A stretch of DNA of 64,000 nucleotides from a virus: the IMG/VR virus record IMGVR_UViG_3300045738_002140, positions 32,001-96,000 of that record. One strand, given 5' to 3'. The notes beneath the pieces are model-generated. The model made no database searches. It saw nothing but the letters and a program-made list of their open reading frames with translations, and was not told the origin of the DNA. The position numbers and the translations under genes were made by a program. Positions 11,121 to 52,971 of the stretch are shown here, piece by piece. Position 1 is the first letter of the stretch. Every line of letters begins with the position of its first letter.

Positions 11121-11540
11121 CTAAAGAATGGAAACACTAAATGTTTTTAGTATGTATTCTGCTGATAATTTATTAATGTCTTCCTCTTCTATCTCTAGTA
11201 TTTTAAAATTATTTAATTCAAGCCACTCTCTTTTTTGGCAGTCTCTTTTAATTGAGTTAAGGTAGTTTGACGCAGAGTTTTTGTGGAAAAATTTATTGAA
11301 TTCACTGTGTTGTCTTCCTTGTACCTCGACGGCAATTTTTTTAGTTGCGTTTAGTATATCGACCTTCATCAACGTCCCGTACACAGGGAATTCTTCATAT
11401 ACAATTTGGTTTTTCCAGTAGGTTTTTAGGAATTGCTTAACTTTGAATTGTATTTTAGATCTGGATTTTTTGTTCCAGTCTATTAAAAACCTTGAAACAT
11501 TCCTGCTTCGTAGTTTTCCTTTTATGTCATACAGCCTCAT
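11121..11540 (-). CDS. DUF559/Vsr-like endonuclease
   Basis: EEFPV...VDIL...IAVEVQGRQH...RDCQKREWLELNNFKILEI. Confidence 0.75.
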   Translation of the reverse strand: MRLYDIKGKLRSRNVSRFLIDWNKKSRSKIQFKVKQFLKTYWKNQIVYEEFPVYGTLMKVDILNATKKIAVEVQGRQHSEFNKFFHKNSASNYLNSIKRDCQKREWLELNNFKILEIEEEDINKLSAEYILKTFSVSIL

Positions 11541-11545
11541 TAAAT

Positions 11546-11974
11546 TGGTGGAAGCGGCGGGAGTCGAACCCGCGTCTTTAAAGCCATCGGCTCAAATGTA
11601 CTACAAGCTTAGTCGGTGTTAATGCTCGCTTGGCGTGTCACCGACAAACGGCCTACGCGAGGTTGTAAGGGATGTATAAATTTTATACTGGGCTCCCTTA
11701 CGTGCTCCAGTTTTTTGCTCGCTATCGACGCCCTAGCTCCTTAACGAGCATCCAGAGTAGGACGGGGTAGGTTATTCTACCAGCAAGAGGGCTTCATCCT
11801 CTACAAAACCGAACTTGGCGAGAATCTCGTCAGCTTCGGCTAGTGAAGGGGCCATCTCCATGTCAACATTAGTGTTGGCATTTATGTTTTTTTGATAGAT
11901 GTTTTTAAGAGGCCAACCATCATCCTCTGCTTGCAATTTGGCGTAAGGTTCTAAATCGAATCCAGTACGCTCCC
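11546..11974 (-). ncRNA. ssrA: tmRNA (429 nt); tag reading frame 11879-11772
   Basis: 5' GGGAGCG pairs with 3' CGCTTCC-ACCA (G3:U70 alanine identity); GGATTCGA near the 5' end; T-arm GCGGGTTCGACTCCCGC; ATAAAT-GCC resume context followed by a 35-codon frame. Confidence 0.95.
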
Positions 11975-11981
11975 GTATATT

Positions 11982-12009
11982 ATTATACACAATTATTTAT
12001 TTTCGTCAA
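11982..12009 (-). promoter_or_regulatory. tmRNA promoter
   Basis: TTGACG-16-TATAAT, 7 nt upstream of the mature 5' G; overlaps a GTGTAT variant of the recurrent motif. Confidence 0.75.
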
Positions 12010-12024
12010 GTTCTTTTATTTACG

Positions 12025-12144
12025 TCATTTCCAGTTGTCTTTGTTCGTTAAGTCACTAATTTTTTTATTGCACCAAAGCAAAACTATGATGCCAACAATT
12101 ATATTAGCCACAAAGATAGTTACTCCTAGCTCTGCGTCGTCCAT
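12025..12144 (-). CDS. Small single-pass membrane protein (39 aa)
   Basis: Manual translation MDDAELGVTIFVANIIVGIIVLLWCNKK...; fills the gap in the operon. Confidence 0.5.
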   Translation of the reverse strand: MDDAELGVTIFVANIIVGIIVLLWCNKKISDLTNKDNWK

Positions 12145-12146
12145 AA

Positions 12147-12473
12147 TTACTCTCCCCGGCTAAGAGTTTTGCCGTAGTCAATCAGGTAAAGGTCGTGCGT
12201 TGCCGCCGCAGTCTCGTCGATGATGTCTGCAAATTCAAACATCTCAATCGCTGGCATGTTGTTCTCGCCGTACTTACCGGCTGGCAAGTCCGAATACTTC
12301 GGCACAACGCCTTCGCGGAGCAACGCAATCTTCTTTGCGCTATCTCTGTTGTTCATGGCCTCCATGCCATCATTGGACAGGTCGAGTTCTTTGACTCTTG
12401 TCTGTGTTTCTGCGATATTTTTTTCAAGTCGCTTGATATGGTTGCTAAAAGCAATTTCTGTTTTGTTGTTCAT
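12147..12473 (-). CDS. Hypothetical protein
   Basis: ORF in operon orientation with an N-terminal coiled coil. Confidence 0.65.
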   Translation of the reverse strand: MNNKTEIAFSNHIKRLEKNIAETQTRVKELDLSNDGMEAMNNRDSAKKIALLREGVVPKYSDLPAGKYGENNMPAIEMFEFADIIDETAAATHDLYLIDYGKTLSRGE

Positions 12474-12483
12474 AAATTATTGG

Positions 12484-13251
12484 TTAAACCGTTCTTACCC
12501 CTCTCTTTGAGACCACTTTTGTCGCACACTCATTGGCGTAGTTTATCGCTGTTTCTGCATCACCCACCCTTGTCATGGATACTGCTAGTGCAGCTAGGAA
12601 TGTGTCTCCTGCGCCCGACAAATCTTGAGTGACTACTTTCTCTGGTGGCGGATATATTTTACCCATATATTTGCACCCTTTATGCCCTAGGGTTACAATT
12701 ATTTGGTCTGGCCTAGTATAAGTTGATGTCTCCGCTCTGTCTGGTATTAAGTGGTGCCTTAAGTGGGGATTAACTTCAAGCTCGTGCTCGTTTATTTTTA
12801 GAAACTTCAAATTAACAGGCAAATCACAGCGGAGTTTAACTTTGTTGCTATCTAAATAAACATTATCATGATATTGGCATATATCCCTAATGCCACACCT
12901 GCGAAGAAATCCCTTGCCGTAGTCTGAAACTAAAACTGCATCATATTCGCCCCAAGGTACATTTTTGTAACTAAACTCGTCTTCAGCGGCGTCATTTTCG
13001 TCTATTCGAAGTAACATTTGATTTGTTTTAATGTCCACATACCTAGTCTTAAGTATTTCATTAGACTGAGTGATCAGGTCGCATTCTACTCCAAGCGCTT
13101 TTACATTTGCTTGCACATTGGCCGCCATGCCGCCATTGGTTTTCTCTTTTACAGGGACAAATACCGGGACAGGAGCCTCTGGGCACATCCTGTCACATTT
13201 GCCGTAAATAAATATGTCTTTGCAGCTATCTCCTATTGCTAGAAATTTCAT
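12484..13251 (-). CDS. PfkB-family kinase, RfaE/HldE domain I-like
   Basis: RMCPEAPVPV, GMAANV, SDYGKG, DLSGAGDTF. Confidence 0.9.
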   Translation of the reverse strand: MKFLAIGDSCKDIFIYGKCDRMCPEAPVPVFVPVKEKTNGGMAANVQANVKALGVECDLITQSNEILKTRYVDIKTNQMLLRIDENDAAEDEFSYKNVPWGEYDAVLVSDYGKGFLRRCGIRDICQYHDNVYLDSNKVKLRCDLPVNLKFLKINEHELEVNPHLRHHLIPDRAETSTYTRPDQIIVTLGHKGCKYMGKIYPPPEKVVTQDLSGAGDTFLAALAVSMTRVGDAETAINYANECATKVVSKRGVRTV

Positions 13252-13658
13252 TTTAATTTATTTATACACACTTTTTTTCTGAGGGCTGAGGTTGACCAGT
13301 CATGGCTTCTCCTATGATAATATATATCAATGTTCAAAAAATCTCCAGTAAATTTTTTTCCTTCATAGTCGCTTCCTAGTATTCTGATGTCTGGCTCGAG
13401 TATTTTGAGCCATTCTATTAGTTCTTTTTCTGTGTTGTATACTACGACTTCGTCAACATAGCGTATCGCTTCAAGCTGAATCATTCTCTCGGGAAAAGAT
13501 TGTATGGGTTTGTTTTTTTCTGGCCTGTCTATGGTGGGGTCTGTCTGTAGCGCAACGATAAGGTGGTCACACTGAAGGCAGGCGTCTTTTAGCATCAGGC
13601 AATGACCCGCGTGCAGCATGTCGAAGCAGCTGGCAACTATACCAACCTTAGTGCTCAC
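13248..13658 (-). CDS. Cytidylyltransferase (TagD-like)
   Basis: FDMLHAGH (HxGH), KPIQSFPER, RSHDWSTSALR. Confidence 0.9.
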   Translation of the reverse strand: MSTKVGIVASCFDMLHAGHCLMLKDACLQCDHLIVALQTDPTIDRPEKNKPIQSFPERMIQLEAIRYVDEVVVYNTEKELIEWLKILEPDIRILGSDYEGKKFTGDFLNIDIYYHRRSHDWSTSALRKKVCINKLK

Positions 13659-13685
13659 TTTTTTCCTTGTATATTATTCATATTA

Positions 13686-13759
13686 TGGAGCGAGCGAAGG
13701 GGATCGAACCCTCATCAAGAGCTTGGAAGGCTCCCGCACTACCGTTGTGCTACACTCGC
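13686..13759 (-). tRNA. tRNA-Gly(UCC)
   Basis: Cloverleaf GCGAGTG...CGCTCGC-T-CCA; anticodon loop CTTCCAA; GTTCGA T-loop. Confidence 0.96.
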
Positions 13760-14190
13760 TATATTTTTTTAAGTCCTGTGTATTCTGAGGAGGAGCGAAT
13801 CTTTTGTCCTAGTCCATCAACCATTTCTATTTTTAATTCTTTGCATACTTTTGCTTCTGGTATTTCTTCTTCTGTTCTGTCTCCTCCATTAGCAAAAATA
13901 TCAGGCTTGCATAGCCTGAGCGATTCGCAAACTGTTTGGTCTTCGTCAACAGCAAGGAATGCTTCGTCTACGCACCTGAGGGCACGGACTATCTTAAGGC
14001 GATCCTCTTCTTTCATAAATGATTTACCTTTCTTTAGGGAAGCCTGTTTGTCTGTGTTAACTATGACTACGAGCTTAGTAAAGAAGGGCTTGTCTCCTAA
14101 GGCTGCTGCTTGTTCAAGATATTCTAGGTGTCCCACGTGGAGGGGGTCAAAGTAGCCGCTTACTGCGATGGTTATAAGTCTTGCTTCCAT
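13759..14190 (-). CDS. Cytidylyl/adenylyltransferase (HxGH family)
   Basis: SGYFDPLHVGH, FANGGDR, KIRSSS. Likely start is MEARL at 14190 rather than the track's 14292. Confidence 0.9.
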   Translation of the reverse strand: MEARLITIAVSGYFDPLHVGHLEYLEQAAALGDKPFFTKLVVIVNTDKQASLKKGKSFMKEEDRLKIVRALRCVDEAFLAVDEDQTVCESLRLCKPDIFANGGDRTEEEIPEAKVCKELKIEMVDGLGQKIRSSSEYTGLKKI

Positions 14191-14195
14191 AATGT

Positions 14196-15293
14196 TCACG
14201 CTACGTCTTTCACTATTGAATCTATAGTTGCGTTTGTTACTTGAGGCATGCAGATGAGGTGGGCGGTGTTCTTCTCTACTGCTAGTTTCCATTTTCTGCT
14301 AATTTTTTCATCTGGCCTAGGGAAAACTACTGTAATCGCGTGGTCATTTTTCCAAGCTTTCACCCCTGCTTCGTTAAACTTTGAAACAGCATACTCTGCG
14401 GTTCTTGTGCACCGCCTGACTATTCTTTTGAAGCCGTTGAAGCCGTGTTTTTTTATAGCATACCATAAGAGAATGGGGGTGAACCCATTTCTCGAGCCGC
14501 TGAGTGTACTGTCTAATGAGCCCACATACTCTACATCCCTAGAAACCCTGCCGACGTTACTTTTAAGTGCAAGAACTACGCCGCAGGGAATAGGCGAACC
14601 TATAAATTTGTGTCCACTTATGGATATGCTTTGAACCCCTGTTGTAAAATCAAATTTAGGAGAGCCCTCAATGAAGGGCAGCGTCATCCCTGCTAGGGCC
14701 GCATCAACATGTATATAATATTCCGGTATTGCTAATTGTTCTAGTACCTTTTTTATTTCTGTTATATCGTCGAACCCCTCTTTCATTGTCGTGCCTATGT
14801 TTGCAAAAATAACAGGAGGTGCAGAGCGCCAAGTGGAGAGCATGTTCCTGAAGTCGTCATAATCCATTTCTCCGTTACGTCTTGATTTAATCATGACGTT
14901 TTCCATGTTCAATACCCTTATGTTTTTGCTCACGCTATAGTGGGTGTCTTGGGAATAGTAGACTACCCCCTTGGGGTAAAGTTCCCTAGCTAAGTAAAGT
15001 CCATATAAATTGCCTTCCGTTCCACCATTGGTAACATATCCCCAGTAATTATCAGAAGGAGCGTTGTGAAGCTCTGCGAACCAATGCAGCACCTCTTGTT
15101 CGAATTCTCTGGAGTCTAGCCCATAGTAGCTTGAGGAAAATGGGTCTCCTACATTGTTAAGGGGGATAGACAAAAAATCAGATAGCTCAGAATAATCAAA
15201 AGAAGTATTTACAGGGTATCCTATAAACTTTTCTTTTTCTTCCTTCAAGCTTTCGTAAAACTTTTTAAGTTTTTTTATATCTGATTTGTTCAT
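14196..15293 (-). CDS. PLP-dependent group II decarboxylase (histidine/serine decarboxylase family)
   Basis: GYPVN, NNVGDPF, WGYVTNGGTEGN, HVDAAL, SGHKF (PLP lysine), GSRNG. Confidence 0.92.
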   Translation of the reverse strand: MNKSDIKKLKKFYESLKEEKEKFIGYPVNTSFDYSELSDFLSIPLNNVGDPFSSSYYGLDSREFEQEVLHWFAELHNAPSDNYWGYVTNGGTEGNLYGLYLARELYPKGVVYYSQDTHYSVSKNIRVLNMENVMIKSRRNGEMDYDDFRNMLSTWRSAPPVIFANIGTTMKEGFDDITEIKKVLEQLAIPEYYIHVDAALAGMTLPFIEGSPKFDFTTGVQSISISGHKFIGSPIPCGVVLALKSNVGRVSRDVEYVGSLDSTLSGSRNGFTPILLWYAIKKHGFNGFKRIVRRCTRTAEYAVSKFNEAGVKAWKNDHAITVVFPRPDEKISRKWKLAVEKNTAHLICMPQVTNATIDSIVKDVA

Positions 15294-15369
15294 GGCACTC
15301 TCGCTGGGACTCGAACCCAGAACCCTCTGTTTAGAAGACAGATGCTCTATCCAATTGAGCTACGAGAGC
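15293..15369 (-). tRNA. tRNA-Arg(UCU)
   Basis: Cloverleaf GCTCTCG...CGAGAGT-G-CCA; anticodon loop CTTCTAA. Confidence 0.96.
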
Positions 15370-15378
15370 ATAATCTTC

Positions 15379-16467
15379 TTAGAACTTTTTGAGGGTTTCT
15401 CTAAATTTATGAAATAAATATTTTCCTATCTCTTTGTTCTCCTCAAGGTATTTGCTAAAATTGTCTATGCCTTGGTGCTGTTTTCTGAACTCTAGTTCTG
15501 TTTTTTCTTTAACTTCTTCTATTATCTCGTCTGAGATGGTCACCCATGCCCCTTTGGCTGTGGCCATCCCCCACATAAGCATCATGTCTGCCACTTCTTT
15601 TTCTACCCAAATACTTTTTCCGTTTTTTCTTTCGTATCGAATGGGGTATCTTACGCCCACTCCTGTTTTTTCATTAGGGGTTTTCCTGAAAATAACTTTG
15701 CACCAATGACCAAGCTTGTCCCCTTTTCCGTTCGGCTGGGTAGAAATAATATCTTTAAGATAGCGTGGTTGAAACTCTAAAATCCAATCACTGTAATGCA
15801 ACATAGCGTTACCTCCGGATGCATTCGTCACTTGAGGGTCGGACTTTTCATAGGGATTAATTTTGATTGTGCTTCTTACTTGGGATATCATGTAGCAAAT
15901 GTGGCCTCTGGTTGATAAGCCGAGGGCCATTCTCCTAAGGAAGTCAGAGCTCAGTAGTGCGCCCCCGCCTACTTTTAGGGCCTCTTCTGATCCTTTTTCT
16001 AAGTCTCCACGAGGGATGAGGGAATCCATGGAATCTATGATAAACATATATCGAGTATCTGATGGGTTGTCTTTGACCATCTGGCGCATAAGGTTTATTA
16101 CTGTTTCATAAACATTAGATTTAAACACAAACCATTTCTCTGGGGAAGTGTCTATGCCCATTCTTTCTATAAGGTCTTGGGATAATCTTCCTTCCGCTTT
16201 CACGTAGATGACCATGCTGTTTTCCATCTTCTGAAAGTTCTTGGCGAAGGCGAGACCACAGGAGGTTTTCCCCCCCTCGGTGACTCCTGTGGCTCGCACA
16301 ACGCCGGGCTTTATCCCGCCCCCCATTTCGATATCTAGCAAAAGACTTCCGCTAGATACCGCATAGATTCTTTCTTCTTCAAAATTATAATGATCCCCTT
16401 TATGCTGTTCAAGGTACGCGTCGATTTGCTGGAGGGGCGTAATATTATCTGTTTTCTTTTTTGTCAT
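15379..16467 (-). CDS. recA: RecA/UvsX-like recombinase
   Basis: SSGSLLLDIEMGGG, GGKT Walker A, IIDS Walker B, ISQVR, SGGNAMLHY. Confidence 0.9.
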   Translation of the reverse strand: MTKKKTDNITPLQQIDAYLEQHKGDHYNFEEERIYAVSSGSLLLDIEMGGGIKPGVVRATGVTEGGKTSCGLAFAKNFQKMENSMVIYVKAEGRLSQDLIERMGIDTSPEKWFVFKSNVYETVINLMRQMVKDNPSDTRYMFIIDSMDSLIPRGDLEKGSEEALKVGGGALLSSDFLRRMALGLSTRGHICYMISQVRSTIKINPYEKSDPQVTNASGGNAMLHYSDWILEFQPRYLKDIISTQPNGKGDKLGHWCKVIFRKTPNEKTGVGVRYPIRYERKNGKSIWVEKEVADMMLMWGMATAKGAWVTISDEIIEEVKEKTELEFRKQHQGIDNFSKYLEENKEIGKYLFHKFRETLKKF

Positions 16468-52647: not shown

Positions 52648-52971
52648 ATGAATACATCACTATATACCAATAGGTTATTTAACGACCTATTCGATACCCT
52701 TAGCTTGGATTCCAGAATCCACCCATCAGAGGAGGCTTACGAGTTTAATGTCAATTTGGCTGGCTTTAAAAAAGAAAACGTAAAAGTTAAAGCCGAAGAC
52801 GGACTACTCCACATCAGCGTAGAGCAGGGTGACAGGAGCTACTCCAGATATTTCACAGTCCCAGACAAGGCAGACCCTACAGCCACGGTAATAAAATACG
52901 AAGAAGGTTTATTGCACGTCAAATTTATTAAAAATGAAAAAGAAAAAGGGGTGAATATAGCAGTAAATTAA
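52648..52971 (+). CDS. Small heat shock protein (Hsp20/alpha-crystallin)
   Basis: LAGFKKENVKV...LHIS...YSRYFTVP...YEEGLLHV. Confidence 0.9.
   Translation: MNTSLYTNRLFNDLFDTLSLDSRIHPSEEAYEFNVNLAGFKKENVKVKAEDGLLHISVEQGDRSYSRYFTVPDKADPTATVIKYEEGLLHVKFIKNEKEKGVNIAVN

Follow-up and report, generated by a model that had tools for sequence, protein, structure and literature searches.

Does a phage tmRNA gene whose predicted tag is 35 residues long, strongly acidic and ends in Val-Glu encode a working trans-translation RNA and, if it does, what would such a tag mean for the proteins that receive it? The one-piece tmRNA of Escherichia coli encodes the tag ANDENYALAA, and changing the LAA end of this tag to LDD, or its last Ala to Asp, abolishes recognition by both ClpXP and ClpAP; with the ssrA-DD variant, tagging and rescue proceed while ClpXP and ClpAP are blocked. 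The gene considered here lies in a 64,000-nucleotide stretch of DNA (hereafter the window). This stretch comes from an IMG/VR virus record of 114 kb, ~66% complete by estimate, a placement that confirms the reading of the DNA as phage in the initial annotation.

The window encodes a full-length, alanine-type tmRNA

The window matches the Rfam tmRNA model RF00023 over its full length (window positions 11974 to 11546, minus strand; model positions 1–374) with 134.3 bits and E = 2.4e-52, well above the gathering score of 47 bits, and a search of the whole record returned this same single RF00023 match. The acceptor stem comprises 7 bp (GGGAGCG/CGCUUCC) and includes G3:U70; it is accompanied by discriminator A73, an encoded CCA and a standard T arm (GGGUUCGACUCCC). 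The full model match and these alanine determinants bear out the initial description of an intact, alanine-type tmRNA of 429 nt. The features of the locus are collected in Table 1.

Table 1. Features of the tmRNA locus, in window coordinates.
Feature	Position	Strand	Basis
Promoter-like site TTGACG-16-TATAAT (11/12), contains GTGTA	11982..12009	-	Motif scan; ends 7 nt 5' of tmRNA G1
One-piece tmRNA gene, 429 nt	11546..11974	-	RF00023 full model; covariation, 66 distinct relatives; metatranscriptome contig cover
Acceptor stem 5' strand; includes G3, which forms the alanine identity pair G3:U70	11968..11974	-	Sequence and Rfam
Pseudoknot 1, first stem (tmRNA positions 47–51 with 63–67)	11908..11928	-	100% paired, compensatory changes in 4/5 pairs
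A at -4 from resume codon, equivalent of E. coli A86	11883	-	Invariant in 64/64 family members
Resume codon GCC (Ala)	11877..11879	-	Frame reading, codon pattern, ARAGORN on relatives
Tag frame, 35 codons, net charge -8	11775..11879	-	Translation; profile match E 1e-19
Conserved tag core, residues 10–24 (APSLAEADEILAKFG)	11808..11852	-	Family alignment; AlphaFold2 helix 13–22, block pLDDT ~90
Val-Glu codons GUA GAA, replacing the Ala-Ala codons GCA GCA of relatives	11775..11780	-	Translation, relative comparison, tree; RNA contigs
Tag stop codon UAA	11772..11774	-	Translation
Helix 5 (tmRNA positions 211–224 with 232–246)	11729..11764	-	12 pairs, 98% paired, compensatory changes in 5
Pseudoknot 2–4 region, mosaic between family members	11609..11725	-	Comparison with L103
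T arm, acceptor stem 3' strand, discriminator A and encoded CCA	11546..11573	-	Sequence, Rfam, covariation
139-residue DUF559/Vsr-like (PD-(D/E)xK) nuclease gene, weak signals	11121..11540	-	Starts 5 nt after CCA

An RNAalifold consensus built from 66 sequences (the family described below) recovered the acceptor stem, helix 2, the first stem of pseudoknot 1 (PK1), helix 5 and the T arm, with these stems 96–100% paired and each showing several compensatory pairs; the second PK1 stem was judged by eye alone. Compensatory changes are found at acceptor pairs 4–6, and pair 3 is G:U in 66/66 sequences. Because conserved pairing, compensatory changes and an invariant G3:U70 occur together, the RNA is under structural selection as a tmRNA. 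ARAGORN made no tmRNA call on the window, relaxed scoring included; it recognized 51 of the 66 relatives, truncated most of the 35-residue tags and missed all of the copies with a Val-Glu end.

The tmRNA is expressed as a discrete RNA in seawater

Fourteen studies have seawater or marine sequencing runs in which the tmRNA stretch is present. Four seawater metatranscriptomes, each from a different study, were analyzed over positions 11400–12100, where contigs cover 11544–11975 alone. The RNA data consist of assembled contigs, so exact ends, strand and level are outside their reach; on this basis, the summed contig depth over the tmRNA is ~380–1430, and it is zero in both flanks, neighboring genes included, in all four runs. 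The silent flanks argue against carry-over of DNA. Sequencing adapters abut the contig sequence at 11548 and at 11965. In two of the runs, contigs identical to the window extend across 11738–11836, a segment that includes the Val-Glu codons and the stop codon. The tmRNA is expressed as a discrete stable RNA.

Contig cover ends at 11975, and a promoter-like site lies immediately upstream of the gene (Table 1). A GTGTA(A/T) element is found 8–12 nt 5' of the tmRNA across the family (window copy, 11982–11995), with GTGTA occurring within 25 nt 5' of the tmRNA in 60 of 84 relatives; this element may be a lineage-specific -10-type promoter element. GTGTAA is not enriched in the phage's own genome (24 copies vs ~56 expected).

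The tag is read from a GCC resume codon and is conserved as a peptide

In E. coli, A86 of the tmRNA sets the reading frame, which begins four nucleotides downstream (PMC2481249). The window RNA resembles E. coli SsrA in placing an A four nucleotides before an alanine resume codon and in encoding a tag that starts with AN, and the base directly 5' of the resume codon is U in 63 of 64 family members. Confirmation of the resume codon by ARAGORN fails on the window copy and succeeds only via relatives: applied to those with tags of 30–31 residues, the program named the homologous GCC. Within the tag frame of the relatives, codon position 3 varies 2–3.5 times more (by entropy) than positions 1 and 2. 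In the 31-residue class, synonymous and non-synonymous changes number 1152 and 947 in frame, vs 419 and 1761 or 293 and 1878 in the two shifted frames. As a pattern of substitutions among relatives, this codon usage shows that the tag is conserved as a peptide. Thus the originally proposed resume codon, GCC at 11879, is backed by the invariant A(-4), the codon pattern and ARAGORN on relatives, and the strongly acidic 35-residue tag proposed with it stands as well, with a net charge of -8 and its stop at 11772–11774.

The window tag has the C-terminus ...FVEDEALLLVE. AlphaFold2 predicts a helix at tag residues 13–22 and a short helix at 28–32, with a mean pLDDT of 80. An amphipathic helix had been suggested for the tag; the helix itself is retained by the prediction, while its amphipathic character is weak, the hydrophobic moment being no higher than that of shuffled tags, and was rejected as a candidate property.

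Two alternatives to tagging were weighed against these data. Most family members carry an in-frame AUG just before the APS of the tag, from which a free small peptide (MEMAPS... or MAPS...) could be made with no involvement of trans-translation. The methionine is not invariant, however (Thr, Val and Phe variants occur, and one tag is devoid of any Met), no Shine-Dalgarno sequence lies at a usable distance, and the residues AN.NVD, 5' of the AUG, are likewise conserved in frame. We therefore regard the free peptide as extremely improbable.

The second alternative is a decoy: the main effect of the RNA would be to sequester the SmpB of the host and thereby stop its trans-translation, with any tagging incidental. 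Its apparent abundance in RNA libraries is high, and SmpB was found neither in the whole record (~66% complete) nor in two 100%-complete relatives (178 and 158 kb), which extends beyond the window the initial remark that no smpB accompanies the tmRNA and suggests that host SmpB is used. Such a role has been proposed for the TLD-only RNA of mycobacteriophage DS6A, an RNA of a kind that inhibits tmRNA (PMC4131195). The window RNA does not belong to this TLD-only class of SmpB decoys, as its full mRNA-like domain and pseudoknots are present. A decoy would need no mRNA-like domain, A(-4) or open frame, yet all of these are kept, the A(-4) without exception, along with the synonymous bias of the substitutions; the decoy is consequently disfavored and very improbable. 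Taken together, we are highly confident that the locus encodes a real, expressed and translated tmRNA.

A family of long-tag tmRNAs shares a near-invariant core

Relatives were collected from IMG/VR in two steps: a search with the 19-nt 5' end of the tmRNA gave 29 loci, to which a degenerate 20-mer designed on the tag core added over 100. Full tmRNAs of the family are present on at least 84 viral contigs and amount to 66 distinct RNAs and 55 distinct tags. In addition, 72 metagenome protein clusters with the same tag family were retrieved from 5.8 billion predicted proteins, using as query a spurious ORF that overlies the tag. Family tags are 30–35 residues long (a few shorter ones are reads of the resume-codon finder and are possibly mis-assigned) and contain the near-invariant core APS[LV]xEAD[EA]ILAxFG. 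The window tmRNA has the family's tag length, core and 5' end (GGGAGCGUACUGGAUUCGA), and a profile built from 53 distinct tags of at least 30 residues matches its genomic copy at E = 1e-19. Ten columns of the core are invariant in the family alignment, including A10, S12, E15, A16, D17, I19, L20, A21 and G24, and the core is better conserved than both ends of the tag. The long acidic tag that had first been singled out as peculiar is therefore real, but it is common to a large phage family and not the property of this phage alone.

Bacterial genomes were searched for a source of the tag. The tag profile gave chance-level matches only, inside long ORFs, in 401 Pseudomonadota genomes and no match in 401 Bacteroidota genomes, a sample of 802 in which the positive control worked (phage copies at E ~1e-19). 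The tag-core pattern occurred in at least 120 stretches across 185,579 species genomes and, among the matches listed, all were chance occurrences outside a tmRNA context. The tag family appears from these searches to be phage-only, with no host origin seen in the 802 bacterial genomes sampled.

The conservation of the tag as a peptide and the absence of its invariant core from the sampled bacteria point to a function beyond marking for ClpXP. We think it probable, with some reservation, that the internal core is the functionally important part of the tag and acts as more than a simple degron. The tags match nothing in Pfam or among PDB structures, and a proposed mimicry by the core of the bL12 N-terminal domain or of an acyl carrier protein helix ('EEKFGV'-like) was rejected, as neither Pfam nor PDB searches supported it, even at E 10. 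Modification of the invariant Ala-Pro-Ser by phage JmjC and Gnt1-like enzymes was also rejected, since two complete relatives have the core but no JmjC. In some metagenome copies (proteins P0035, P0049 and P0065), the tag frame diverges after ...FGYVE and runs to a longer, different end (...HAAA), which suggests frameshifted variants or assembly errors.

The Val-Glu end is a derived allele within the family

The last two residues of the tag were compared across the family. Among the 84 contigs the ends are AA (57), AV (8), VA (7), VE (5), TA (3), IA (3) and LV (1), and among the 72 protein clusters the main ends are AA (37), VA (15), VE (10), VV (4) and AV (3), so that ~90% of family tags end in AA, VA, AV or TA. 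A small apolar C-terminus, a feature of the ClpXP type, is found in 79 of the 84 related contigs and is lacking in the window tag (...LLLVE). The comparison thus refines what had been claimed at the outset: a long tag is common among related phages, and only its last two residues are special here.

The window sequence GUA GAA UAA corresponds to GCA GCA UAG in relative L102, so that the final two sense codons differ by a single base each, and among the protein clusters the ends ...LLLAA, ...LLLVA, ...LLLVV and ...LLLVE are all found behind the same ...VEDEA context. A tree built from the 5' 205 nt of the tmRNA groups the Val-Glu copies in a single clade, which lies nested within Ala-Ala copies. 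The flanks of the Val-Glu carriers are ~73–75% identical to the window genome, and the 5' 205 nt of their tmRNAs 94–99.5% identical; the Val-Glu end is found in at least seven tag variants, all of which keep the core. On the evidence of tree and codons, the ancestral tag end is apparently of the Ala-Ala type, with Val-Glu reached by single-base steps (AA to VA to VE), and the Val-Glu end is best described as derived and kept, not as a one-off error. The initial reading of a tag that ends in -LLVE instead of -AA was accordingly correct: frame, tree and RNA contigs show an end that is real, derived and expressed.

The Val-Glu end also occurs on three different pseudoknot 2–4 backbones, by which the tmRNA gene is recognized as a mosaic. 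The tmRNA of relative L103 is 99.5% identical to that of the window over the 5' 205 nt and ~60% identical over the middle (11609–11725); it is a 472-nt form with a 47-nt insertion. Mosaicism of pseudoknots 2–4 was noted for window positions 11609–11725 and for loci L103, L105 and L110. The pattern suggests recombination inside the tmRNA gene.

Is the Val-Glu end of consequence? It might be neutral drift, with ribosome release alone mattering to the phage and the tag end inconsequential. Every step toward Val-Glu is a single-base change, and Ala, Glu and Val all occur at the last position in close relatives, so that the variation within the ...LLLV- sub-lineage could reflect relaxed constraint and not selected loss of a degron. 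The remainder of the tag is nonetheless under clear peptide-level constraint, Val-Glu carriers included; Val-Glu persists across its tag variants, its three backbones and genomes that are ~25% diverged, and the RNA contigs from several studies carry this allele. These observations make neutral drift improbable.

A stronger rival is that the tag is still degradative, with the core serving as degron or adaptor site and the last two residues contributing little, such that Val-Glu and Ala-Ala tags would decay alike. The core is more conserved than either end, and the last residue varies (A, E or V) within the sub-lineage. The 27-residue tags of Mycoplasma, in which Lon recognizes several internal determinants, offer an analogue of a long, Lon-specific tag. 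The preference of ~90% of the family for AA, VA, AV or TA weighs on the other side and suggests that selection normally acts on the tag end. Searches of the phage record (~66% complete) for ClpP, Lon and SspB found none of them. On balance we judge a tag that is still degradative to be unlikely. Proteins tagged with Val-Glu could still be degradable by Lon, by FtsH or through an adaptor that binds the core.

Genomic context and host

Genes in the record are tightly packed and include a PolIII-alpha-type polymerase, DnaB, a RecA/UvsX-like protein and many sugar-nucleotide genes. In relatives, the tmRNA follows a RecA-like gene and is followed in turn by a nuclease-like gene of 139 residues, an ORF of 97 residues and DnaB. 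In the window phage, a 3.4-kb insert (12147–15379) separates RecA from the tmRNA; it is a cassette of sugar-nucleotide genes and two tRNAs (tRNA-Gly and tRNA-Arg), its genes encoding a PfkB kinase, a PLP decarboxylase and two cytidylyltransferase-like proteins. The complete 178-kb relative has two tandem homologues of the window's Gnt1-like glycosyltransferase (G406:C1:72872-74806; 37–39% identity) ~1.8 kb 3' of its tmRNA; the tmRNA neighborhood may be a hot spot for glycan genes. A further 79 viral contigs (loci L003–L081), which have a DnaB ~45% identical to that of the window, are without this tmRNA within 8 kb, and the gene is therefore variably present among related phages.

Of 83 related loci, 54 have the 139-residue nuclease-like gene (~63% identity) at a distance of ~10 nt from the tmRNA, on its 3' side. 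It matches HNH/homing endonucleases in PHROG at E = 2e-6 and DUF559 in Pfam at E = 0.025, the latter below the cut-off. It probably belongs to the recombination module and is not a partner of the tmRNA; its product could drive conversion of the tmRNA gene or be no more than an enzyme of recombination. Phage chaperones were also considered. An HSP20 gene is present in the window (52720–52956, plus strand; E = 4.8e-12) and in a complete relative with an Ala-Ala tag end, and no Cpn10 or HSP70 was found. As HSP20 occurs with both kinds of tag end, a link between non-AA tag ends and phage chaperones was rejected.

Searches of 50,697 phage records with the tmRNA (blastn) and with 20 kb of the genome (megablast) gave no match, and a tblastn search of phage records with the tag gave nothing meaningful. 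The PolIII alpha protein is less than 32% identical to that of any cultured phage, and for this reason no cultured relative or host can be named. The genes psbA and hli are absent from the phage. Across the whole record, a core Shine-Dalgarno motif precedes 18% of long ORFs vs 11% of random positions, and the upstream regions are A/T-rich, which points to a host with weak Shine-Dalgarno use.

Relation to known tmRNAs

The window RNA is like canonical SsrA (RF00023) in its full model match, G3:U70, A73, CCA, PK1, helix 5 and further pseudoknots, and most family members share with E. coli SsrA an Ala-Ala tag end. It differs from canonical SsrA in being phage-encoded with no smpB found and in being missed by ARAGORN. 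The family tag differs in length (30–35 vs ~10 residues) and in an inserted, invariant, helix-forming core, and the window tag in its Val-Glu end. With its tag intact but for an acidic residue at the very C-terminus, the window RNA recalls the engineered ssrA-DD; unlike ssrA-DD, the window change is natural and gives Val-Glu, not Asp-Asp, and the effect of the DD end is known for E. coli alone.

Mycobacteriophage Bxz1 carries a one-piece tmRNA (Rfam, 73.9 bits) with an acidic tag that ARAGORN reads as 25 residues ending in ...AEEAAALV and that is unlike the tag of its mycobacterial host (ADSNQRDYALAA). The window phage resembles the cluster C mycobacteriophages (Bxz1 and relatives) in combining a phage one-piece tmRNA, a long acidic tag and a DnaE-type polymerase; it differs from Bxz1 in habitat and host group, and the apolar end of the Bxz1 tag contrasts with the window's Val-Glu. 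Homology between the Bxz1 and window-family tags was rejected (hhalign probability 1.3%), the likeness being one of composition alone. As there is no profile similarity, the two kinds of tag look convergent, not homologous.

Marine myophages (Melnitz and the pelagimyophages) carry a complete two-piece ssrA without smpB, for which a role in keeping the hijacked translation machinery running has been proposed (PMC9004378). The window phage is likewise a marine phage having ssrA without smpB. The myophage tmRNAs are, unlike that of the window, circularly permuted, of alphaproteobacterial type and linked to a glutamine riboswitch, whereas the window tmRNA is one-piece and comes from a phage lineage unrelated to Melnitz and the pelagimyophages; long conserved tags are not described for the myophages (PMC9004378). 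Phage tmRNAs as such are known already (PMC4131195, PMC9004378, PMC7162821), and no paper describing long conserved tags in them was found in the open literature. What is unusual here is the small Val-Glu branch of a long-tag family.

Proposed mechanism and significance

From the conserved parts of the tmRNA, we infer the following course of events. Transcription of the tmRNA gene from a promoter of its own would yield a discrete stable RNA, which host AlaRS would charge through G3:U70 and A73. Host SmpB and EF-Tu would then bring it to ribosomes stalled on broken mRNAs in infection, where translation would resume at GCC (11879) and add the 35-residue acidic tag, the core of which is probably read by a host or phage factor. 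The ancestral Ala-Ala end would have given protease targeting; the Val-Glu end should remove C-terminal recognition by the rules for ClpX, ClpA and Tsp, rules that may not be those of the host. Rescue and core function would continue, and the tagged products would probably no longer be fed to ClpXP via their C-terminus. Competition with host tmRNA for SmpB and a counter to RNA-cleaving defences, both raised at the outset, stand as hypotheses beside this course of events.

This reading, of a functional phage tmRNA with a conserved long tag, a core with its own role and a Val-Glu end that loses C-terminal protease recognition, is the one we consider probable. Whether Val-Glu would block ClpXP-type degradation in the real host is nearly evenly balanced and leans slightly toward doubt, given that the rule set is that of E. 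coli and may not be the host's. A bolder proposal is that the core is a docking handle for a dedicated reader, such that trans-translation redirects truncated proteins to a new fate and not to destruction alone, with the Val-Glu sub-lineage as a natural separation-of-function allele that lacks the ClpXP route. We hold this to be speculative and rather unlikely; if true, candidate fates include sequestration, a different protease or a modification enzyme.

To our knowledge, phage tmRNAs are almost unstudied and most surveys of them rest on ARAGORN, a program that misses the window copy and misreads the 35-residue tags of its relatives. The tag would yield diagnostic tryptic peptides, namely the C-terminal FGFVEDEALLLVE and junction peptides ending in ...APSLAEADEILAK, through which tagging in infection could be addressed in existing ocean metaproteomes. 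What the DD tag is in the laboratory, the Val-Glu clade is in nature, and it could show what a phage needs from trans-translation: rescue, degradation or something else.
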